Below are positions 122 through 14,746 of a stretch of 24,000 nucleotides of DNA, piece after piece (the first letter of the stretch is position 1; the number at the start of each line of letters is the position of its first letter). The notes under the pieces are model-generated. The model worked only from the letters and a program-made list of their open reading frames with translations. It had not been told where the DNA came from and did no database searches. Position numbers and translations under genes: made by a program. The stretch covers positions 2,165,269-2,189,268 of the forward strand of contig NZ_CP175559.1 of assembly GCF_047421495.1 (NCBI RefSeq), in the 5' to 3' direction. The DNA comes from Acidithiobacillus sp. M4-SHS-6 (lineage in GTDB: Bacteria > Pseudomonadota > Gammaproteobacteria > Acidithiobacillales > Acidithiobacillaceae).

Positions 122-360
122 GCGGTCTCCCTTTCTGAGGAATGCTGCAATCCATGTACCGATCGCAGTGTATTCTTATGGAGTCAGTACGCTGGACAAG
201 CGGTCAGTCGGCAACTTCTGACTTGGGACTGGTCATTGCCTTGCTCAGACGAATACCCTTCTTAATCTTACGACGCTATCCAACAAGCTGTCACGTCTCG
301 ACAAGCCTCGCTGCTTTTTGCACACTGGGAACATACCCTACAGCCGCAAAAGGGCCACCA

Positions 361-1305
361 ATGGCCTATTATAGGAAACACCGCAAATACCGGGGATCCA
401 GTGGAAGCCCGCGGTTGAACATCGCTACCATGACGGACCCCGCGTGGATCGGCTCGGCCATCCTCGCAGGCATCATCCTGTTTTCATCCTGGCTGATCCT
501 ACCCACCGTTTTTCAGATTAACCCCATCCTGAAGATACTGACGCCACTTTTTGAGATGATCGGCAGCATCCTGGCGCTGATTTTCGGATTCATGGCGTTC
601 ATGCTGTTTCTGGCCCGCGATACAGAGTCGGTGACACCATCCACAACGTACAAGCCCGCATATCAGCCACCAAAGCCCTCTCAAAAACTCCTGAATGACA
701 ATCCATCACCGTACGCCGACTCCAATCCTGAGCAGCCCTACGGATGGTCCTTGTCACTACTCCGAAGCCTCGAATGGAAACGGTTTGAAGACCTTTGCAA
801 TGAATATCACCGTGAATGTGGTCTGCGAAGCACCACCACAGGGCTCGGTGCCGATGGCGGTGTGGATATTCGTTTGTTCCATCGGAAATCAGGTGAATTA
901 ATCGCAGTTACCCAGTGCAAGGCGCGGTCGAATAGACCCATAGGAGTTGATCTGGTTCGACAGCTTTTGGGCACGATGACCCATGAAAAAGTGCCGATCG
1001 GAACTTTTATCACCAATGGCACTTTTACCAAACCCGCCGAGGAGCTAGCCAAGGAAGATCGTATTATTCTTGTTGACGGCAAACACTTCATAGAACTGAT
1101 TGAGCAGATGCCTGCTTTGTCGCGGGCGCGATTGCTGGCCTTCGCAACGGAAGGGGACTACACCACGCCAACCTGCCCACATTGTGGGATCAAAATGGTG
1201 CCGAGAACCAACAGAAGGAAAGGGAATAAATTCTGGGGCTGCAAAAATTACACCAAATATCCGCCCTGCAAACAAATATTGCAGATGAGAAAAGGAACGG
1301 ACTGA
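361..1305 (+). CDS. Membrane-anchored Mrr-cat (PD-(D/E)xK) restriction-endonuclease-like protein with C-terminal topoisomerase-type C4 zinc ribbon
   Basis: This is part of track ORF 142-1305. The first 73 codons look non-coding, so I prefer the ATG at 361 (alternative ATG at 430). There are two hydrophobic helices (AWIGSAILAGIILFSSWLILPTVF and IGSILALIFGFMAFMLFLA). The Mrr_cat core is WKRFEDLC...GADGGVDIRLF...AVTQCKA...IGVDLVRQLLGTM. The zinc ribbon is CPHCGIKMVPR...KFWGCKNYTKYPPC. Confidence 0.8.
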   Translation: MAYYRKHRKYRGSSGSPRLNIATMTDPAWIGSAILAGIILFSSWLILPTVFQINPILKILTPLFEMIGSILALIFGFMAFMLFLARDTESVTPSTTYKPAYQPPKPSQKLLNDNPSPYADSNPEQPYGWSLSLLRSLEWKRFEDLCNEYHRECGLRSTTTGLGADGGVDIRLFHRKSGELIAVTQCKARSNRPIGVDLVRQLLGTMTHEKVPIGTFITNGTFTKPAEELAKEDRIILVDGKHFIELIEQMPALSRARLLAFATEGDYTTPTCPHCGIKMVPRTNRRKGNKFWGCKNYTKYPPCKQILQMRKGTD

Positions 1306-2908: not shown

Positions 2909-3766
2909 TCATGCAACCGCCTCCTCCAGTTCAATCACCTGTTCCAGCTGCACGCCGGTCCCTTCCCTCGGATATCCGAAGGGATTGGACAACACCCGCA
3001 CCTTACCGATCCGGTAATCCACCACATGATGGATATGGCCGTGCATCCACAACTGCACCCCCTGATCACCATAATGCGCCACGCTTTCCTCCAAATGACT
3101 GGCATAGGCGCCGGACAGATCATCCTTGCGGAAGGAGGGATAAAGCGAATTCCATGCCGGGGCATGGTGGGTGATCACGACCTTGGAGCCATCCCAAGGC
3201 TCTGCAACAGCGGTTTCCAGCCACGTCTTGCTGGCCAGGTGCATCGACAGGGCATCTTGCGGCGCAAAACGCCGGGCACCCCCATGACAGCGTATCCGCT
3301 TATGGTCCTGCATAGTCTCTCGTGCTGCCCGCATGACACAGGGGTCGCCGCCATCAAAATCCGACCACAGGGTGGTTCCGAAAAAACGGATATTGCCGAT
3401 GTCCACGCTTTGTCTTTCCAGCAGCGTAAAGCGCGCCATCAGGTCCTCCGGCACATGTCTGGCCAATCCCTCCCGCCATTTTTCCGGTGCGCGTTCGACG
3501 GAGAACCCCCAGTAATCGTGGTTTCCCAGCACCGCCACAATATGGGGAAAAGGGGGTGCCACCATTTTCAGCCAGTCGGCCAGCTTTTTGGGCGTGCCGA
3601 AGTCACCCGCGAGGACGAGAATACTGTCCGGGTCCGTCGTCAAGGAGGCCAGACGGACCGTGGCGGGTGGATTCACATCCACATGAATATCCGACAGGAG
3701 GCGCAGAAAGGGCTGCGGCTTCCCTGTCAAGGCGCGCGTATCCTCCTCCGATTGTTCCCGCGTCAT
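2909..3766 (-). CDS. Calcineurin-like metallophosphoesterase (long form, paralog of 1516-2262)
   Basis: Track ORF. Motifs are LSDIHVD, AGDFG, GNHDYW, ITHHAP and HGHIHH, plus TTLWSDF and DYRIGKVRVLSNPFGYP, which mirror 1516-2262. Its start overlaps the upstream stop as ATGA (3766-3763). Confidence 0.88.
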   Translation of the reverse strand: MTREQSEEDTRALTGKPQPFLRLLSDIHVDVNPPATVRLASLTTDPDSILVLAGDFGTPKKLADWLKMVAPPFPHIVAVLGNHDYWGFSVERAPEKWREGLARHVPEDLMARFTLLERQSVDIGNIRFFGTTLWSDFDGGDPCVMRAARETMQDHKRIRCHGGARRFAPQDALSMHLASKTWLETAVAEPWDGSKVVITHHAPAWNSLYPSFRKDDLSGAYASHLEESVAHYGDQGVQLWMHGHIHHVVDYRIGKVRVLSNPFGYPREGTGVQLEQVIELEEAVA

Positions 3767-5187
3767 TGTAACCAGTCTCCATTCCTGCCCGACGGCCGCT
3801 CCGCCATGGCCTGCATTTCCAGCAGTCGATACACTACGCCGCGCAAATCGCGCATGGACCGGGGATTACGGGCGAAGGCCTGCTGCAAACGATCCCTGAC
3901 CGTGATTTCCAGATCGGGCAAGGCCGCCGTGTCCACCCCATATTCCCGGGCGACATCCCGCCGCACGTTCTCCAAAATGCGATCAAAATCCTCCGCCTGG
4001 GGAAGCCCCACCCGGATGGTCTCCCAACGGGAGCGCAATGGCCCCGGCAAATCCTCCAGACTGTTTGCCGTCGCCACCCAGCTGATGGCGGAATAATCGA
4101 CCTCGCCGAGGTGAAACTCGTCGAGCACGCCGCTGCTACTGGCAGGTTCCAGAAACGTCAGCAAGGTCTCCCAGATCCGTCCATTCTGGCGTCCCAACCC
4201 CACTTTGTCGATCTCGTCCAGGATCACGATAGGATTGGGGCACTGTCGCTCCAGCATCATTTCCACCAGAAAACCGGGGCGGGCGCTGCTCCAGCCGCGC
4301 GCAGCACCTTTCAGGAGCATATTGTCGTTGGCTCCGGCCAGCGGCACAAAGAGCGTCGGAGCGACCATGGTTTCCCCCAACCGTCGCAGGAACCGGGTCT
4401 TGCCCATACCGGCAGGGCCCAGAAGGAGCAGAGGACGCAGTCGCAGACTGTCCACGCCCAGGCGCTGCGCCAAGACCTGCTGTCGTTCCAGCGCGCCGAT
4501 CGCCGCTTCCATCCAGGGGAACTCCTGCCGCAGCAACTTCGCCCAGGAAAGACTCCGTGGCCATGCCGCCAGCGGCAGAGGACGCAGGAGGGGACGAAAC
4601 CGCTCCAGGTTGCGGCGGTCATCCTCCTTCCCGGGCGCCTGCATGGATTGCAGCACGACCCGCCGGGCACGCCTGCCCTCCTCCGGAATTTCTGCCATAC
4701 CCAGCACACGTTCCAGTACACACTGGAGCGGAAAGAGAGGAAGTGGCACAGCGCTTTCCATCTCCCGGATGAACCGGTTAACCTCCCGGGCCAAAGCCGG
4801 ATCTTCCAGCCGGGCTACGGCCAGCAGGCCCATCTCCAGGGTCAGCATTCGGCACTGCGCACTGCGATCGCGGCTATCCATCCAAAAATCGGCCTTGTTG
4901 CGCCATTGCCCACGCCAGAAATAAAAGGCGTCTCTGAGGAATGTACCATAGGATTTCGGCTGCAGGCGTGCGGCCAGCACCAGGGCATAGATCTCCCCCA
5001 ACTTTGAGCCCTGTTGTGCCGCAATTGTTGCCCACTGCCAGGCGAATTCCTCCGGAGGGCTCCAGCAACCCTCTTTCTGAACCGCTTCCGCAAGGTCGCC
5101 CAATGGGATGCAAGCGACCGCCATCTCCACTGTAAAACGCTGGCTTCTTTCCAGAACCTGGGGAGGCTGGCACTTTAAATGACTCAT
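3763..5187 (-). CDS. AAA+ ATPase with a Lon-like ATPase module, no protease domain, and an uncharacterised N-terminal domain of about 250 aa
   Basis: The track ORF 3763-5232 begins at a GTG. I prefer the ATG at 5187, which overlaps the upstream stop as ATGA (5187-5184). Walker A is LLLGPAGMGKT and Walker B is IVILDEIDK. LLTFLEPASSSGVLDEFHLGEVDYSAISWVATANSLEDLPGPLRSRWETIRV parallels the Lon segment (LLEVLDPEQN..F.D.YL.V.YDLS.V.F..TAN....IP.PLLDRME.I). Nothing after this resembles the Lon S-K protease. Confidence 0.85.
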   Translation of the reverse strand: MSHLKCQPPQVLERSQRFTVEMAVACIPLGDLAEAVQKEGCWSPPEEFAWQWATIAAQQGSKLGEIYALVLAARLQPKSYGTFLRDAFYFWRGQWRNKADFWMDSRDRSAQCRMLTLEMGLLAVARLEDPALAREVNRFIREMESAVPLPLFPLQCVLERVLGMAEIPEEGRRARRVVLQSMQAPGKEDDRRNLERFRPLLRPLPLAAWPRSLSWAKLLRQEFPWMEAAIGALERQQVLAQRLGVDSLRLRPLLLLGPAGMGKTRFLRRLGETMVAPTLFVPLAGANDNMLLKGAARGWSSARPGFLVEMMLERQCPNPIVILDEIDKVGLGRQNGRIWETLLTFLEPASSSGVLDEFHLGEVDYSAISWVATANSLEDLPGPLRSRWETIRVGLPQAEDFDRILENVRRDVAREYGVDTAALPDLEITVRDRLQQAFARNPRSMRDLRGVVYRLLEMQAMAERPSGRNGDWLQ

Positions 5188-5783
5188 CGAATTATGTTCC
5201 AAAGTTGGATTTCCATGTTGGTAGTGCCACACTTTGGGGCTTCATGAATCCAGATCTTCCGAAAAAGCAGGGGGCAGCACAAAGCTAACGGGCCGTGCAT
5301 AACGAATAATCCTAAAAAAGCAGTTATGCCCCAGGCAGGGCGGGAATGGCCCCCTCCGGTGACCATGGTGATCGGGTAATTTGTGCCACGATGTAGCCTG
5401 ACGAGGAGGTCCCAGGGGGTTGTGCCCAGTAACCGCTCCGCAGTCTGCCGTCCGGTCTGTAACTGCGGGTCTTGCTCCTGGTCTACTTCGTGGGCGGCCA
5501 CGACCGCCTGCTGAGAGCCTTCATAGGTGTCCGGAACCGGCAGGAGATAACTCGCCTGTTCGCCGGGAGCCGCGCCTTCCGGCAATACGGCGGTCCAGAC
5601 CGGCTTCGTGTTGGCCGTTTCCTTGTGGGTGACGGTGCTGGTGAAGAAATCGCTGGATGAGGAAGTGCTCATGTGCGAGGTCGTCTGCGCCGCCGCAATC
5701 CAGCCGTTGCCGCTCTGGGCGTGCTGCATGACCAGGCCGACCGCCGTGTTGAATTCATACAGCGAAATGGTTACTATGACCAC
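5184..5783 (-). CDS. Hypothetical protein (first gene of the operon), with one predicted C-terminal hydrophobic helix and no domain I recognise
   Basis: Track ORF, with a GTG start at 5783. Alternative ATG starts are at 5729 and 5672. Third-codon-position G/C stays high through at least 5700. The hydrophobic stretch is AWGITAFLGLFVMHGPLALCCPLLF. The stop overlaps the next start (ATGA). The start is uncertain because a good vapBC promoter sits at 5749-5777. Confidence 0.55.
   Translation of the reverse strand: MVIVTISLYEFNTAVGLVMQHAQSGNGWIAAAQTTSHMSTSSSSDFFTSTVTHKETANTKPVWTAVLPEGAAPGEQASYLLPVPDTYEGSQQAVVAAHEVDQEQDPQLQTGRQTAERLLGTTPWDLLVRLHRGTNYPITMVTGGGHSRPAWGITAFLGLFVMHGPLALCCPLLFRKIWIHEAPKCGTTNMEIQLWNIIR
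5749..5777 (+). promoter_or_regulatory. Putative sigma70 promoter of the antitoxin/toxin operon
   Basis: TTGAAT (5749-5754), a 17-nt spacer, then TACTAT (5772-5777), about 33 nt upstream of the antitoxin ATG. Confidence 0.45.
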
Positions 5784-5809: not shown

Positions 5810-6064
5810 ATGATGTTGACTGTCAATGTGAAAGACGCCAAGGCAAAGCTCTCCAGCATAGTAAATGAAGCGATCAATGGCGAGTTCGTGACCATTACCC
5901 GTCATGGCAAGCCGGTTGCAGCACTGGTGTCGATCGAAGTGGCCGAGAAAGCCCGTAAAGCCATGGAGCCAAAACGTATGCGACTGGTGGACTATCTCAG
6001 GACTTTCCCGGGCGATGACGCATTCGAACGTAACCGCACACCATCACGAGATATAGAGATTTAA
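5810..6064 (+). CDS. Type II antitoxin, Phd/YefM family
   Basis: MMLTVNVKDAKAKLSSIVNEAINGEFVTITRHGKPVAALVSIE is the canonical Phd/YefM N-terminus. The gene is small and overlaps the PIN gene by 1 nt (TAATG). Confidence 0.88.
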   Translation: MMLTVNVKDAKAKLSSIVNEAINGEFVTITRHGKPVAALVSIEVAEKARKAMEPKRMRLVDYLRTFPGDDAFERNRTPSRDIEI

Positions 6065-6534
6065 TGAAATTTCTGCTCGACACCGATGTCATTTCCATGC
6101 TTTCACCCGTGCGAAACGCCGTTTCAGCCCCGATTCTTGCCTGGCTGGAACAGATGGATAACGAAGATCGGCTGTTCTTGTCTGTGGTCACTATCCACGA
6201 GATCGAAAAAGGCATTGCTGTTTTAGAAGGCAAAGGAGCGTCCGCAAAGGCATCCGAACTCAGAAAATGGCTTTTAACGCTGGTGTCCACTTACGCGGAC
6301 AAGATTTTGGGATTTGATGCGTCTGCAGCGACGATTGCTGGGCAATTAGAAGCGAGAGCCATAATGGCTGGTCATAATCCGGGAATGGCAGATGCGATTA
6401 TAGCGGGCATTGCCAAGGCGCATAATCTTGTTGTTATTACCCGCAACACCCGCCATTTTCTCACCTTTGGTGAGCATGTGGTTTCTCCTGATGACGCCGC
6501 AGCGTCCCATTGTGGTTTTGGTGAAAAATCCTAA
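6064..6534 (+). CDS. vapC: PIN-domain toxin (VapC/FitB-like ribonuclease)
   Basis: MKFLLDTDVIS...TIHEIEKG...MADAIIAGIAKAHNLVVITRNTRHF. The conserved acidic PIN residues are in their expected positions, and the gene is coupled to the upstream antitoxin. Confidence 0.88.
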   Translation: MKFLLDTDVISMLSPVRNAVSAPILAWLEQMDNEDRLFLSVVTIHEIEKGIAVLEGKGASAKASELRKWLLTLVSTYADKILGFDASAATIAGQLEARAIMAGHNPGMADAIIAGIAKAHNLVVITRNTRHFLTFGEHVVSPDDAAASHCGFGEKS

Positions 6535-6803: not shown

Positions 6804-7625
6804 CTATACGTCCACGGCCGCTACTGCGTAGTCGGGCCGGAATGACCGATCATGAGCGAGGAGCGCCCAGACGATTCGTGCGGACTTATTCGCCAAAGCC
6901 ACGGCCGCCACATTTTTGTTGCGACGTATGGCCACGGAAAAGTCCCAATTTTTGGGATCTGCCTTCTGTAAAACCCGATAAATCACCGACCGTGCGCCAT
7001 GAATCATGAGGGTGCGCAGGTAAGCATCTCCTCGCTTACTCATACCCAACAGGTTTTGTTTCCCCCCACTGGAATACTGCCTGGGAACCAATCCAAGCCA
7101 AGCAGCCAATTGGCGGCCATTTTTAAAATTCTTTTTCCGAGAGCCGGTCAATGAGACCACGGAACGATTCTGGCAATTTCTGGCTGGTGTCCTCCATCAA
7201 CTGATGGGACACGCTGTGTGACATAAGTGATCCCTTGCGGCACGACAATACCGAATTCGCTCAGCAGGCCACGAATCTGGTTGGCCTGCGCCGTGCGCGC
7301 CTTCACGAAACCTTGCCGCACCCGATGCAGTGAGAGAACCGCTTTCTGTTCGACATTCTTGATCGGGGCATAACGCATCGATGGTCGGCTAACCGCCTCG
7401 CAGATGGCCTCGGCATCAGCCGCATCATTCTTGTTGCTCTTCACGTAGGGCTTTACGAACTGGGGTGCCATCAGCTTGACCGTGTGCCCCAAGGATTCCA
7501 GCTTGCGTGCCCAATGATGCGCACTGCCGCAGGCCTCCATGCCGAGCAGGCACGGCGATAGGTTCGCAAAAAATATCGCAAGTTGGTTGCGATTGCTCGT
7601 GTAGTGAGGAAACCCTCACTATGGC
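6804..7625 (-). mobile_element. Degraded IS110-family transposase (5'-truncated, internally deleted/frameshifted)
   Basis: Track ORFs 7148-7540 (MEACGSAHHWARKLESLGHTVKLMAPQFVKPYVKSNKNDAADAEAICEAV...) and 6804-7160 (...FKNGRQLAAWLGLVPRQYSSGGKQNLLGMSKRGDAYLRTLMIHGARS...) are the DEDD and Transposase_20 halves. They are in different frames, and the middle of the protein (tens of aa) is missing between them. Homology upstream of the ATG (SNRNQLAIFFANLSPCLLG) ends at a stop near 7625, so the first tens of aa are also missing. Confidence 0.8.
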
Positions 7626-8692: not shown

Positions 8693-9658
8693 CTAGCGTT
8701 TTTTTACTGCGAGCGATTCCATCTCTCTGATCTGTTGTGCCATTACTTCGGCGGGTGTCCGACCCGAAGGGCGGCGTAAGCAAAAACCCAAAGATTTCCT
8801 AGGTCGATTATTGAGTTCGTCGGCAACGATGGTCAAGCAGCACTGAGAAAATTCCAACAGGTCCTGTCCCTTGGGGAAGTACTGCCGCAGCAGGCCGTTG
8901 GTATTCTCGTTCGTGGGCCGCTGCCAGGGACTGTGGGGGTTCGCGAAATAGGCCAGAATCCCTGTGCGTTTCTCCAGCTCCTGATGCCGCGCCATCTCCT
9001 TGCCCTGGTCGTAGGTCAGGGTCTGCCGAAACGCCTTGGGCAGGGACCGCAAGCGCCGCGTGAAGCCGTCCAGAATCGACTCGGCGGTGCTGTCATCCAC
9101 CCGCGCCAGAATCACGAAACGACTGCTGCGGTCCACCAGGGTGCCAATGGCGCTGCCGTTGTAGGCACCCTTGATCAGATCTCCTTCCCAATGGCCGGGA
9201 ATCTCCCGTGCCTCGGCTTCAACGGGACGCTCGCGGAGCGGACGCATGTTCTGGATACCGCCCCGGCGGTCCTTGCCCCGACTCCGGGGGCGCCGTTTGC
9301 CATGCCCCCGCCGCAGCGCCCCAATGAGCGCCCGCTTCAACTCGCCAGCGGGATGGGCATAGATGTACTGGTAAATGGTCTCGTGACTGACCTGTCGGGA
9401 CCGGTCTTCGGGGTAATCCAAGCGCAGCCTCCCGGCCACCTGCTCCGGTGACCACTTCCGCTCCAGCATGGCCGTGCTGACCTGTTCCGTCAAGGCATTC
9501 CCCGGAACCAGCTTGCGTGTGCCTCGGCGTCTCCGGGACCACGCCGTCTCCCGTCCCGTAACCGCATCATAACTGTTGTCCATCCACCCCCGATGAACCT
9601 CCCGGCTCAGGATGCTGGGGTTGCGTTGCAACTCTTTGGCCAGGGCTCTCAGGCTCAT
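8693..9658 (-). CDS. IS30-family transposase (N-terminal HTH apparently incomplete)
   Basis: HWEGDLI...TLVDRSSRF...LTYDQGKEMA...FANPHSPWQRPTNENTNGLLRQYFPKG...ELNNRPRK is the IS30 DDE core. The ORF starts inside the HTH (AAGMSLRALAKELQRNPSILSREV) and there is a stop 7 codons upstream, so the first roughly 20-30 aa seem to be missing or frameshifted. Confidence 0.85.
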   Translation of the reverse strand: MSLRALAKELQRNPSILSREVHRGWMDNSYDAVTGRETAWSRRRRGTRKLVPGNALTEQVSTAMLERKWSPEQVAGRLRLDYPEDRSRQVSHETIYQYIYAHPAGELKRALIGALRRGHGKRRPRSRGKDRRGGIQNMRPLRERPVEAEAREIPGHWEGDLIKGAYNGSAIGTLVDRSSRFVILARVDDSTAESILDGFTRRLRSLPKAFRQTLTYDQGKEMARHQELEKRTGILAYFANPHSPWQRPTNENTNGLLRQYFPKGQDLLEFSQCCLTIVADELNNRPRKSLGFCLRRPSGRTPAEVMAQQIREMESLAVKKR

Positions 9659-10578: not shown

Positions 10579-11145
10579 ATGAAATTTAATATGTTGTCCA
10601 CAGCAGCTCTATCTTTCTCTTTGTTACTTGCCAGTGCAGGTATTGCGCAAGCAGCAAGCACAGCAACGACAACGTTCAACGTCACCGCGACGGTTCCTGC
10701 CTTCTGTAAGGTGAGTGCTACGAACCTGAATTTCGGCAACTATACGCCGGGATCAGGAGCCGTTACGGGGAACTCCACCATTTCTGTGAACTGCACGAAA
10801 GGAACGACGTTCACCGTAGCTTTGAATGCTGGATCGAGTACGGGGGCCTCTTTTACCAATCGCAACATGACCGGTACAGGTGCTGCCGATCCCGCAGGGA
10901 ATACGGCTACAACCTCAGACTTGCTGAACTATCAGCTGTATACCACCGCGACCGTCGGTAGCGGTGGGACGATCTGGGGAGATGGTTCAACAGGCACTTC
11001 CACCGTAGCCGGCACGGGTGCTGGCATGGGCACGCCACAGGCTGTGGCCGAGACGGTTTATGGACAGATCCCAGACAGCACGGTGAACTCAACAGCGGTA
11101 CCCGGTGCGTATTCAGATACGGTGACGGTCACGGTGAGCTATTGA
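10579..11145 (+). CDS. SCPU (spore coat protein U)-domain pilin, CsuA/B-like major subunit
   Basis: The signal peptide is MKFNMLSTAALSFSLLLASAGIAQA. Further SCPU features are TFNVTATVPAFCKVSATNLNFGNY, LNYQLYT, GAYSDTVTVTVSY and paired cysteines. AAGGA lies 6 nt upstream of the ATG. Confidence 0.85.
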   Translation: MKFNMLSTAALSFSLLLASAGIAQAASTATTTFNVTATVPAFCKVSATNLNFGNYTPGSGAVTGNSTISVNCTKGTTFTVALNAGSSTGASFTNRNMTGTGAADPAGNTATTSDLLNYQLYTTATVGSGGTIWGDGSTGTSTVAGTGAGMGTPQAVAETVYGQIPDSTVNSTAVPGAYSDTVTVTVSY

Positions 11146-11146
11146 C

Positions 11147-11896
11147 ATGATGCGGTGGATTTGCAGATGTGGGGGCGCGGGACGAGTCATTGGTTTTTTT
11201 CTACTCATCGTTCTGCCTTTTTCTGCACAGGCCGGTGATTTCGCCATATCGCCGGTCCATGTTCACCTGTCTCAACACCATCCGATTGCCGCTCTGGTGT
11301 TGACCAATTTGCAGGATACATCACTGACGGTACAGGCAACAGCGCAAGCCTGGTCACAAGCACATGGCAAGAATATGACGACAGATACCCACAGTCTCAT
11401 TATTTCTCCGCCACTTTTTGCCGTGCCTCCGCACGGGAAACAGATCATCCGTGTGGGTCTGCGGACGCCCATTCCTCTGCGCCAGGAGAAAGACTACCGC
11501 TTGATCCTGCATGAAGTGCCTCCTCCACCCAATCCGAAAGTCACGGGGGTGCAGATCGTATTAAGAATGATCCTCCCGGTATTTGTTGCGCCTTTAGAAA
11601 AGGCGGCACCTCTCCAGTTACAGGTTTCTGCCCACGTTACGAAAAACGGATTTTCCTTGCAAATGGTCAATGACGGTAATCGGCATGTAGAAATTTCGGG
11701 AGTACGAATTTCTGAGAACGATCATGAAATTTTCAGGAAAGACCTTCTGATGTATGTACTGCCAGCCTCTCGTCAAGAGATCGATATTCCTGTCGCACAG
11801 AGTTTGTCTTATGTCGGGAAAACGCTGTCTGTGCAAATCATGACCCGTCAGAAGGAACAGCCCATAGATGCATCTGTGGTGGTTGTCGCCTCTTAA
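11147..11896 (+). CDS. Periplasmic fimbrial chaperone (PapD-fold, CsuC-like)
   Basis: A signal peptide ends in SAQA and is followed by FAISPVHVHL...ALVLTNLQD..LTVQ...IISPPLFAVPPHGKQIIRVG. The gene lies between the pilin and the usher. Confidence 0.8.
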   Translation: MMRWICRCGGAGRVIGFFLLIVLPFSAQAGDFAISPVHVHLSQHHPIAALVLTNLQDTSLTVQATAQAWSQAHGKNMTTDTHSLIISPPLFAVPPHGKQIIRVGLRTPIPLRQEKDYRLILHEVPPPPNPKVTGVQIVLRMILPVFVAPLEKAAPLQLQVSAHVTKNGFSLQMVNDGNRHVEISGVRISENDHEIFRKDLLMYVLPASRQEIDIPVAQSLSYVGKTLSVQIMTRQKEQPIDASVVVVAS

Positions 11897-14276
11897 TGGA
11901 AGATGTGCGGCGTTCTTTTTCTCGATGGCATTATTCTGTAGCGGTTTTGCCCACGCCCAAGGGATCGCCTCTGCGCCTTTCCCTCAACGGATCGGTGGGA
12001 GATTCTCCCCAACGAAACCCGTGGCAGTTATTTTTTCGGTGCATCTGAATGGGAAGCCAGTGAGTAGCGGTACGGTATTACAGCGTCTGCCTGACGGGGA
12101 ACTGCTTGTCTCAGCGAAAGACCTCACAAAATGGCGCTTGCGACGGCCCAAGAGTTCCGGACTGCTTATCGATAAGGTGTGGTATTATCCCTTATCCGCG
12201 TTGAAGATAAACAGTTATCATGTGGATACGGAAAGCCAGTCCTTGTTTCTCAAAGCGTCGGCAAGTGCATTCTTGCCCACAATGATCACAAAGCGGCAGG
12301 GACAAAACATCCGCGTTACGCCGCCATCTCTCGGTGCTTTCTTCAATTATAACCTTTATGCCCAACACACCATAGGAAACACGCAAGAAGGAGGCTATTT
12401 CAAACTGGGGGTGTTTAGCCCGCTAGGCGTAGTCACTACGAGCTTTATTGTTCAGCATGGCATGGACTTTCAACAAATAGCCAACCAGTCAGTGGTGGTT
12501 CGCCTCAACTCTCTCTGGACCCGTAATTTTCCCAATCGAATGACTGCATTGCAAGTGGGCGATTTTATCACACAGCCCGGTGCTTGGGGTCAGGCGGTGC
12601 GTATGGGTGGCGTCCAGTATGGAACGAACTTTGCCACCCAACCTTATTTGGTCACCACCCCACTGTACAGTGTGCGTGGCCAGGCGGTACTGCCGTCAAT
12701 GGTGGATGTGTACGTGAATCATGTTTTGGTATCGCGAAGTAAGGTACCGTCTGGGCCATTTGCGATCACGCATCTACCCGTCATCACGGGAAGCGGAAAT
12801 ATCAGCACGGTGGTCACCAACATGTTAGGTGCGCAACAGGTTATTACCCAACCTTTCTTCTCCAGTCAGCAGTTATTGCGTCCGGGATTGACCGATTTCT
12901 CCTTTGCCGCTGGGTGGATACGACAAGACTATGGAATACGCAGCAATGATTATGGATCTGCTGCAGCCGTAGGCACTTATCGCATGGGACTTTCCAATAC
13001 CTTCACCGGTGAGATTCATGGGGAGTTGCAGGCCAACAGAAATGCGCTCGGATTCTCTGGCTCCTGGGTGGTCAGTCCGTTAGGCATATTCTCTGGTTCT
13101 GTGGCCTATAGCCACAATCCATGTATTCATCCCGGACAGGGCGTATTGGCGAGCCTGGGTTTTGAACGCATCACGCAAGGCTTGTCTTTCAGTGCCAATG
13201 CACAGATAGATTCCTTGGGCTTTACGCAACTGGGGGATGTTCTTGGATATCCCCGCTTGAACTGGCAGGGAAATGCGACGATCAGTCAGGGTATTGGCTA
13301 TTGGGGTTCTCTGTCTGCATCGTATATTACCCAGAAATATTTTGGAGAGCCCGCGATCAAGATCACCCAGGCCAGCTACAATATCGGTTTGGGTCGTTGG
13401 GGTTACGTGAGTGCATCACTGCTGCGCACCTTTTCTCCCGAACAAAATACCCAGGTAGGGCTGTACTGGACAGTACCCTTTGGGTCGAGATCCAATGTGA
13501 GCCTGACCGCACAATCTGGGGGCACAGGAACTGGAGGTACACTGTGGACCGCCACTGCGCAGCGGAATCTTCCTGTAGGTGCTGGTTTTGGTTATCTGCT
13601 GCAGGCGTCCAGCAATCGCCAGACCTATTTACAGGGCCAATACCGTGGGCCGATAGGCACCTATACCGCACAAATGCAGTCTATAGCGGGTCAAGGGAGT
13701 AGCTACCGCCTGGAAGCCACCGGGGGAATGGGCATATTGGCCAGGACCACGTTCTTCAGCCGCACCATCAACGACAGTTTTGCGTTGATTCAAGTGCCTC
13801 ATATTGCGGGAGTGCAAGTATACGCTAACAATAACCTGATTGGTCGTACTCATACGGACGGGTACTTGATTATCCCGCAGCTACAGCCCTATCAACATAA
13901 TGTCATCTCCATCAATCAGCAGGATTTGCCCCTGGATGCGGAAGTCCCCACATTGGATATGCCGCTCGTTCCGGCCTATTTGAGCGGAAGCGTATTGACG
14001 TTCCCCATAGAGGTAGTGCGTTCGGCGACATTCACTTTGGTTCAGGAAAATGGCAAGCCTGTGCCCCCTGGTGCCATGCTGCAAATTCGTGGGCAAAAGA
14101 AGTCCTATCCCGTAGGATTTCATGGGCTGTCCTACCTGTCAGGGCTGGCGGTGCATAATACGGTAGACGCCACTTGGTCTGGTGGTCAGTGTAGCTTTAC
14201 TTTGACAGATCCCAAGACTACCCACCTGTTGCCCAATTTAGGGAGACAGGTTTGCCGAAACGGAGAACTCCAGTGA
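11868..14276 (+). CDS. Outer-membrane fimbrial usher (CsuD-like)
   Basis: It is 802 aa with a signal peptide ending in AHAQG and beta-rich G/S/T/Q/Y composition throughout. The middle and C-terminal plug-like segments resemble ushers (VDVYVNHVLVSRSKVPSGPFAI..LP). It overlaps the chaperone end, and the next gene starts at its stop. An alternative start is at 11925. Confidence 0.88.
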   Translation: MHLWWLSPLNGRCAAFFFSMALFCSGFAHAQGIASAPFPQRIGGRFSPTKPVAVIFSVHLNGKPVSSGTVLQRLPDGELLVSAKDLTKWRLRRPKSSGLLIDKVWYYPLSALKINSYHVDTESQSLFLKASASAFLPTMITKRQGQNIRVTPPSLGAFFNYNLYAQHTIGNTQEGGYFKLGVFSPLGVVTTSFIVQHGMDFQQIANQSVVVRLNSLWTRNFPNRMTALQVGDFITQPGAWGQAVRMGGVQYGTNFATQPYLVTTPLYSVRGQAVLPSMVDVYVNHVLVSRSKVPSGPFAITHLPVITGSGNISTVVTNMLGAQQVITQPFFSSQQLLRPGLTDFSFAAGWIRQDYGIRSNDYGSAAAVGTYRMGLSNTFTGEIHGELQANRNALGFSGSWVVSPLGIFSGSVAYSHNPCIHPGQGVLASLGFERITQGLSFSANAQIDSLGFTQLGDVLGYPRLNWQGNATISQGIGYWGSLSASYITQKYFGEPAIKITQASYNIGLGRWGYVSASLLRTFSPEQNTQVGLYWTVPFGSRSNVSLTAQSGGTGTGGTLWTATAQRNLPVGAGFGYLLQASSNRQTYLQGQYRGPIGTYTAQMQSIAGQGSSYRLEATGGMGILARTTFFSRTINDSFALIQVPHIAGVQVYANNNLIGRTHTDGYLIIPQLQPYQHNVISINQQDLPLDAEVPTLDMPLVPAYLSGSVLTFPIEVVRSATFTLVQENGKPVPPGAMLQIRGQKKSYPVGFHGLSYLSGLAVHNTVDATWSGGQCSFTLTDPKTTHLLPNLGRQVCRNGELQ

Positions 14277-14746
14277 TGATAGAACGCTACAGGAAATGGG
14301 TTGTTGCGGCAGTATTGCTACTGACTCCTCTCGCGGGAAATGCCGTCACTTGTTCTGCAAGTGCCCCAAATATCAATTTTGGGTCATACAATACCTTGAA
14401 TACCATCCAACTGCCTGCATCGGATATTTCCGTAACTTGTGCGGGTCTTGGTTTTGTTGCTCCAAAGGTCACTCTCAGTTCAGGCTCCGGGAGTTACTCA
14501 GCGAGAGTGATGAATGGGCCTGCAGGGAACACGCTGCAATATAACTTGTATACCAATTCCAGTTATACCACCGTATTTGGTGATGGTTCTTCCGGGACAG
14601 GTTACTATACTGGCAGTCTGCAATTTCTGTTTTTTGGTTCTGTGACCTATTCTGTTCCAGTCTATGCACAACTACCAGGCGAACAGAACGTGGCTCCGGG
14701 GACTTATTCGACGAATACGCCCATTACAGTGACCGTCAGTTACTGA
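14276..14746 (+). CDS. SCPU-domain minor pilin/tip subunit
   Basis: I start this at the ATG overlapping the usher stop (TGATG), not at the track ORF start of 14252. The signal peptide is MIERYRKWVVAAVLLLTPLAGNA. SCPU features are CSASAPNINFGSY, LQYNLYTN, GTYSTNTPITVTVSY. Confidence 0.8.
   Translation: MIERYRKWVVAAVLLLTPLAGNAVTCSASAPNINFGSYNTLNTIQLPASDISVTCAGLGFVAPKVTLSSGSGSYSARVMNGPAGNTLQYNLYTNSSYTTVFGDGSSGTGYYTGSLQFLFFGSVTYSVPVYAQLPGEQNVAPGTYSTNTPITVTVSY

Follow-up and report, generated by a model that had tools for sequence, protein, structure and literature searches.

A truncated Lon-like ATPase gene without a protease domain and its phage-type metallophosphoesterase neighbours in Acidithiobacillus sp. 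M4-SHS-6

What is the use of a Lon-type motor that carries no protease? Few AAA+ machines have been studied as thoroughly as Lon, which has always been conceived as a protease. The question is raised by a gene on the minus strand of a stretch of 24,000 nucleotides from Acidithiobacillus sp. M4-SHS-6 (contig NZ_CP175559.1, positions 2,165,269 to 2,189,268). This whole stretch is called the window below, and all positions refer to it unless another locus is named. The open reading frame (ORF) runs uninterrupted from an ATG at 5187 or a GTG at 5232 to a stop codon at 3763-3765 and encodes an ATPase, followed by genes for metallophosphoesterases (MPEs). The ORF proved to lack the 5' end of an accessory gene that moves horizontally, and the locus is a remnant. 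We hold with middling confidence that this truncated copy of a mobile accessory gene belongs to a family of unfoldase-phosphoesterase conflict modules, acting between host and phage or mobile DNA and likely in defence. Literature searches returned nothing relevant on protease-less Lon-like ATPases or on defence systems combining an MPE with an AAA+ protein, and no paper on the family.

A Lon-type motor and a variable N-terminal region

The motifs of an AAA+ ATPase were located in the translation of the minus strand: Walker A GPAGMGKT (4396-4419), the pore loop KGAARGWSSARPG (4273-4311), Walker B VILDEIDK (4204-4227), sensor-1 VATAN (4063-4077) and the Arg finger PLRSRWE (4021-4041). Together with a candidate sensor-2, they make up an AAA+ alpha/beta domain with a small helical domain at 3766-4443, delimited by Pfam, NCBIfam, PDB and fold comparison. 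Pfam places an AAA domain at residues 268-405 of the window ATPase. The best NCBIfam match is lon TIGR00763 with an E-value of 3e-21, in which residues 268-409 align to lon positions 356-496. The whole-protein score lies below the curated Lon cut-offs, with 75.6 versus 608 bits for TIGR00763 and 52 versus 891 bits for PRK10787. Across 43 homologues, Walker A, Walker B, the sensor-1 Asn and the Arg finger show little or no variation. In the alignment with PDB sequences, W351 of the GTARGW loop falls on the pore-loop Tyr of Lon, and this Trp is nearly invariant in the family.

When the intact orthologue P0011 was compared with PDB sequences by phmmer, 33 chains were found, 32 of which are LonA or LONP1 (best E 6.6e-21). 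The sole exception was Midasin, a weak match at E 1e-4. An AlphaFold model of the ATPase, built with 43 homologues, had a mean predicted local distance difference test score (pLDDT) of 86.5. With this model, the top ranks in Foldseek were taken by Lon only (E 2e-15). VIA aligned it to LonA and LONP1 with Z scores of 21-24 (best 23.9) and a root-mean-square deviation of 2.6-3.8 Å over 276-286 residues at about 20-23% identity. For the match at Z 23.9, the deviation was 2.7-3.2 Å over 283 residues, with model residues 232-519 aligned. The aligned range overall covers model residues of about 229-520, against 266-564 of E. coli Lon and 431-731 of LONP1, and includes the three-helix bundle. A LonA fragment consisting of the three-helix bundle and the AAA alpha/beta domain (4ypn) reached a Z score of 19.9 in VIA. 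The next structural group, the D2 rings of ClpC, ClpB and ClpA, followed at 17-18. By sequence and by fold, the Lon assignment is well outside what chance would give.

The three-helix bundle itself corresponds to a linker at 4444-4647 (minus strand) that is kept family-wide, with the motifs RFRPLLRPLPL and EFPWM, and that was recognized by family conservation and fold alignment. In this region, model residues 229-300 align to residues 257-310 of LonA and 428-500 of LONP1.

No Pfam match to the Lon_C protease domain with its Ser-Lys dyad (PF05362) was found in the window ATPase or in the 526-amino-acid orthologues, and the window protein ends 73 amino acids past the Arg-finger segment. True Lon proteins in the same search do carry PF05362. 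Likewise, residues 1-260 gave no Pfam match to the LON substrate-binding domain (PF02190). Two ordinary Lon genes, coding for 807 and 812 amino acids, are present at other sites of the host genome. The conserved unit is the LonA three-helix bundle with the AAA+ and small helical domains, ending where the protease would start. By membership the window ATPase falls outside the Lon proteases, since the two defining domains are absent; very probably, it works like the Lon motor. A preliminary description, made from the sequence alone, had read the ORF as a Lon A-type AAA+ module without its protease, and all the motifs it quoted, the TIGR00763 and fold matches and the lack of Lon_C agree with this.

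Three groups of proteins invite comparison. With LonA (E. coli Lon, B. subtilis LonA, human LONP1), the family has in common the three-helix bundle, the AAA+ motifs, the small helical domain and an aromatic pore loop. Unlike LonA, it has neither the PUA-like LON N-domain nor the Ser-Lys protease, carries Trp for Tyr in pore loop 1, has a four-helix bundle and TPR-like repeats as its N-terminus, and is encoded by an accessory island gene. The stand-alone unfoldases of the HCLR clade (ClpX, ClpC, D2 of ClpA and ClpB), the second-best structural group, are likewise motors without a fused protease. They choose their substrates via N-terminal or adaptor-binding domains. Unlike these, the window family has Lon-specific sequence and the three-helix bundle, and shows no ClpP-docking loop and no sign of a partner protease. 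BrxL, finally, is a Lon-related protein of the bacteriophage exclusion (BREX) defence system that retains a Lon-protease-like C-terminal domain. A relationship to BrxL or LonB was considered and rejected, as neither the PADLOC nor the PDB sequence searches showed one. The BrxL model of PADLOC was not matched, with TRIP13 and BrxF the only matches of the ATPase at E 0.01-0.04, and the BREX gene families PglX, PglZ and BrxC were not found among the window ORFs.

The remaining N-domain (4648-5162, minus strand) comprises the distal half of a four-helix bundle followed by TPR-like repeats, as modelled by AlphaFold with pLDDT values of 86.5 in the full-length model and 83 for the domain alone. The latter model, built from 21 sequences, has a predicted template-modelling score of 0.78 and contains ten helices. 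The region had been described beforehand as helical-looking and without known match; the all-helical model bears this out, and no family was matched in Pfam, NCBIfam, PADLOC, PHROG or PDB. The best Foldseek match, to designed helical repeats, had an E-value of only 0.16, and a VIA scan of 48,161 chains gave Z scores of at most 9. Residues 1-112 look like a generic four-helix bundle (best Z 8.9), and residues 112-220 align to TPR and PPR proteins (Z 7-8); neither score reaches the range in which matches among helical proteins or helical repeats carry meaning. One long family member has a sub-threshold Sel1 match (E 1.8e-4), and the window ATPase has no Pfam repeat match.

The N-domain is the most variable part of the family, with 25-28% identity between paralogues that are 45% identical overall. 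Such fast divergence would be as expected of a recognition domain. Longer family members, of 650-940 amino acids, carry N-terminal extensions of 400-650 amino acids, in which no Pfam domain was found.

Phosphoesterase neighbours and mobile surroundings

Three MPE genes follow the ATPase gene on the minus strand. MPE1 (2909-3766; Pfam Metallophos E 4.4e-10, phrog_1649 E 5.6e-43) has its ATG overlapping the ATPase stop codon in the sequence ATGA, and the same order and overlap are found in the loci L033, L034, L044, L045 and L046 of relatives. MPE2 is a short metallophosphoesterase (2276-2860, ATG at 2860) that belongs to Metallophos_2 in Pfam and matches phrog_547 with an E-value of 1.2e-50. 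MPE3, a paralogue of MPE1 (1516-2262), starts at an ATG at 2262 after AGGGGA, with matches to Pfam Metallophos (E 5.3e-13) and phrog_1649 (E 8.5e-52). In all three, the motifs DxH, GD, GNH(D/E), H and GHxH are intact and PF00149 and PF12850 score above their cut-offs. None of the three has a close PDB relative, and for MPE1 and MPE3 no PDB sequence match was found.

The ATPase gene is transcribed together with one to four such genes for phage-type metallophosphoesterases, in many cases with translational coupling. In 12 of 17 Acidithiobacillaceae loci (16 relatives and the window), an MPE gene stands directly after the ATPase gene. These 12 include ATPase paralogues that are just 45% identical, while MPE1 stays 82% identical, a pattern of identities that indicates an exchange of cassettes.

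A dedicated activase or chaperone that matures, metal-loads or reactivates the MPEs, in the manner of CbbX/CbbQ or MoxR-type AAA+ proteins and with no role in conflict, could account for the tight translational coupling to MPE1 and for an ATPase-then-MPE order that is kept even at 45% ATPase identity; it would also suit dinuclear-metal enzymes in a metal-rich acidophile. However, a hypervariable N-domain beside a strongly conserved MPE1 is the opposite of what is expected for a fixed client, phage homologues of the MPEs occur without such an ATPase, and most family members have no MPE neighbour. We consider a dedicated activase very unlikely.

The intact relatives have an extra 2.2 kb between MPE1 and MPE2, at the junction 2860/2861 in the window (L033:11062-13136, L038:10467-12720). 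It encodes an MPE of the PrpA/ApaH type and then a P-loop kinase of the Zeta_toxin/AAA_33 type, both absent from the window. The two form a Pnkp-like pairing, resembling the kinase and lambda-phosphatase-like MPE of bacterial Pnkp-type end-healing enzymes. Unlike in Pnkp, kinase and MPE are encoded separately, a ligase is lacking and the similarity is weak (bacter_Pnkp E 0.0018; kinase E 2e-5, without a PDB sequence relative).

Upstream of the ATPase gene, relatives carry a divergent gene of about 380 amino acids (L034:7507-8664 (-), L035:7507-8754 (-) and seven more loci). It gave no Pfam or NCBIfam match, and its N-terminus looks by eye like an XRE-type helix-turn-helix (HTH). It diverges in step with the ATPase, from 93% down to 35% identity.

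MPE1, MPE2 and MPE3 match the phage metallophosphoesterases of phrog_1649 and phrog_547 (T5 A1-like) near end to end, with the metal-binding motifs kept. Unlike those of phages, they are chromosomal, lie in tandem and are led by an AAA+ gene that phages do not have. Homologues of MPE3 were found in 188 phage records, with jumbo and T4-like phages among them. The homologue in Caulobacter phage CcrColossus (L273, 65311-66072) lies inside a tRNA gene array, a hint that its role may be connected with RNA.

Published predictions cast the calcineurin-like enzymes of phages as counter-nucleotide phosphodiesterases or RNA end-healing phosphatases (PMC7824862). The module could accordingly be counter-defence or offence cargo of a mobile element, in which the MPEs would destroy immune nucleotide signals of the host or heal RNA ends and the ATPase would dismantle defence proteins or serve the element. 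The membership of all three MPEs in phage protein families, their occurrence in phage records, the published predictions, the tRNA array of CcrColossus, the kinase pairing in intact relatives and the homologues on plasmids beside type IV secretion system (T4SS) genes all speak for it. Yet the ATPase is essentially absent from phages, with no tblastn match in 50,697 phage records and one IMG/VR contig; the module occurs at varied chromosomal sites among housekeeping genes, outside recognisable prophages and integrative and conjugative elements; and the kinase of the relatives is only weakly matched. Cargo of this kind is judged unlikely, though it deserves to be kept in mind.

The wider family is large. 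An exhaustive phmmer search at E 1e-30 or better gave at least 713 cluster representatives at 50% identity. Most members are 450-560 amino acids long and match only query residues of about 175-465, and their record names are only "AAA family ATPase" or "hypothetical". Searching for the family-specific GTARGW loop as a degenerate DNA pattern gave 63 true members on metagenome contigs, in 49 groups at 90% identity. Among the 109 immediate neighbours of these groups, most of which have no Pfam match, Metallophos was the commonest Pfam family, followed by phage integrase and HTH_31. An MPE gene lay within two genes in about 7 of the 49 groups (about 14%). These MPE counts are minima, as the purpose-built hidden Markov model for MPEs missed some (e.g. 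directly after the ATPase gene in L177). The host genome has nine Metallophos genes in 3 Mb, and the excess of Metallophos neighbours is about 20-fold, an estimate from loci that are related and non-independent and from contigs that are in many cases short. At one of the loci with an MPE, the distant metagenome locus L240, the ATPase gene is followed by three tandem MPE genes.

The preliminary description had named homologues that usually stand alone, without MPE neighbours, as evidence against its reading. On this point the outcome is mixed: an MPE gene follows in most loci with the same N-domain (the 12 of 17 above), but most members of the wider family have none nearby.

Presence is patchy: of 38 family genomes, about 13 have a clear full-length copy. 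Homologues were found on plasmids beside HTH regulators, T4SS genes and helicases, and neighbours across loci include integrases, HTH genes, TniQ, DDE transposases, PIN genes, toxin-antitoxin pairs and insertion sequence (IS) elements. In the Acidithiobacillaceae, the flanks vary by locus, and housekeeping genes are found there side by side with integrases, PIN toxins and IS elements.

Searches on less specific features returned mainly Lon. In a search for relatives based on Walker B, 57 of 80 genome loci were ordinary Lon. A profile search of 400 genomes of the class at E 1e-35 was swamped by Lon, and its tally of 247 of 400 carries no information on the family; true short protease-less members appeared in just about 10 genomes. 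Three unpublished genomes in that tally (G345, G333, G076) support none of the conclusions given here. The other loci of the Walker B search belong to a separate protease-less Lon-like subfamily of about 330 amino acids, observed in Burkholderiales and other groups (L049-L067, L077, L085, L161). It has no GTARGW loop and no phosphoesterase neighbours and may be a housekeeping gene, given the similar sizes and orientations of the flanking ORFs in several loci. At L164:7682-9598 (G413), a distant Lon-like ATPase of 362 amino acids, also without the GTARGW loop, is directly followed by a metallophosphoesterase of 272 amino acids.

In the window, an Mrr_cat nuclease gene with a topoisomerase-type zinc ribbon (142-1305, plus strand; Pfam Mrr_cat E 1.6e-26) is convergent on the operon. 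Homologues of this nuclease lie near the ATPase-MPE cluster in two relatives, L034 and L040.

Truncation of the window copy

Intact close homologues, assigned to Acidithiobacillus by record name, are 526 amino acids long, of which about 230 make up the four-helix bundle and the TPR-like repeats. The window protein aligns to residues 59-526 of P0011 at 85% identity without stops, and blastn homology to the intact loci L033, L034, L045 and L046 (85-88% identity) stops at position 5162. By blastn and protein alignment, the native part of the gene (3763-5162, minus strand) holds codons from about 61 to 526 of the 526-amino-acid orthologues and the stop codon. The ORF continues on the minus strand into a 5' extension at 5163-5232 that has no homology to the orthologues, runs antisense to a fragment of a GFA-family gene and contains the only candidate starts, the ATG at 5185-5187 and the GTG at 5230-5232. 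These starts would give 7 or 22-23 non-native N-terminal residues, respectively. Missing are 58-60 codons, which by the model are the first two helices of the four-helix bundle. The promoter and the divergent upstream gene of the intact relatives are also gone from the window.

The sequence beyond the breakpoint is debris. On the plus strand, 5166-5288 is a 3' fragment of a GFA-family gene, comprising its last 40 codons, with 87% DNA identity to G000:C1:449366-449511 and a translation that matches the GFA C-terminus; the full copy of this gene is 1.7 Mb distant. The minus strand at 5301-5783 holds the decayed 3' remnant of an IS transposase gene (DDE_Tnp_1_4), recognized by in-frame similarity to the transposase C-terminus, and its part 5301-5463 is 85% identical at the DNA level to the 3' ends of two intact DDE transposase genes of 507 amino acids. 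Because the homology stops at 5162 and GFA and IS debris adjoins, the candidate starts lie in foreign DNA. The ORF at 5184-5783 was considered as a first gene of the operon and rejected, being a chimera in which the transposase remnant is joined to GFA sequence in antisense.

Codons 1-60 were lost in a rearrangement associated with an IS, and with them the promoter and the divergent gene upstream. The window also differs from the intact relatives in the loss of the PrpA/ApaH-type phosphoesterase and the kinase between MPE1 and MPE2, and because of both losses the locus is a remnant. The preliminary description was right in seeing a protease-less LonA module with a helical N-terminus, but missed the 5' truncation and the retained three-helix bundle. 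For annotation, the locus should be treated as a truncated remnant and the apparent gene upstream as IS and GFA debris.

The remaining 466 codons contain no stop or frameshift, and the lineage-specific changes in the window copy are 7 non-synonymous versus 18 synonymous, which are small counts. Because of this, the truncation appears to be recent or the remainder still to be constrained. The window copy might nevertheless be a dead pseudogene without current function, its ORF open only because the truncation is recent. The loss of 60 codons with the native start, the promoter and the divergent gene fits this, as do the IS debris all around, the lack of a promoter-like site upstream and the removal of two helices of a four-helix bundle. 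Against it stand the open frame with its mostly synonymous changes and the three MPE genes downstream, which are intact and keep every catalytic motif. We regard a dead copy as quite possible, though short of probable; it would concern this copy only and is compatible with any function of the family.

The island around the operon is heavily rearranged. A PIN-domain toxin gene (6064-6534, plus strand) with a small ORF upstream (5810-6064, plus strand) lies next to the debris, followed by split IS110 transposase fragments and an rve-type (IS30-like) transposase at 6804-7540 and 8693-9658 on the minus strand. A DksA/TraR gene is present in the window next to the operon island, and a complete chaperone-usher pilus cluster of the spore coat protein U (SCPU) type adjoins the island at 10579-14746 on the plus strand.

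A possible conflict role and its meaning

How would an intact member of the family work as a conflict module? The ATPase would form a Lon-like hexamer that grips a protein substrate and unfolds or remodels it via the Trp pore loop, and the variable N-domain would select this substrate. The motor would control, or be targeted by, the neighbouring phosphoesterase or phosphoesterases. Upon recognition of a foreign protein, a phosphoesterase effector would be released to act on nucleic-acid ends or nucleotide signals.

Several points weigh against such a defensive conflict module. None of the validated defence models of PADLOC-DB 2.0 matched the ATPase, and the MPEs match only an untested candidate, PDC-S10, with E-values of 6e-8 to 2e-14 over half of the model. 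Across the wider family, the majority of homologues lack an MPE in their vicinity, and the MPE may be just one partner among several or a frequent fellow traveller in islands. MPEs of this type are common in phages and would suit offence or counter-defence no less than defence. A search for sigma-70-like promoters upstream of the ATPase ORF in the window found none, and this copy may be silent. The oligomeric state, the threading of the substrate and the contact between ATPase and MPE are all steps that we infer.

A broader proposal is that protease-less unfoldases with a LonA core and hypervariable helical N-domains form a large, unrecognised sensor-motor class in the mobile-element conflict systems of Pseudomonadota. 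The motor would recognise and unfold a foreign protein and so switch on swappable effectors, most commonly phage-type MPEs, which in some cases would be joined by a kinase or Mrr nuclease. This we consider possible but doubtful.

A full Lon motor with its entry bundle, freed of the protease, provided with a new and fast-evolving N-domain and spread on mobile DNA, means that evolution has put the Lon motor to new use as an unfoldase standing on its own. The recurrent coupling of this family to MPEs of phage type offers a testable two-part module, at a time when the role of those enzymes in phages is unsettled. If the sensor-motor class were real, it would be a new defence architecture built on the Lon motor. 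Whichever of defence and counter-defence were borne out, several hundred protein clusters and a common family of phage enzymes would gain a function.

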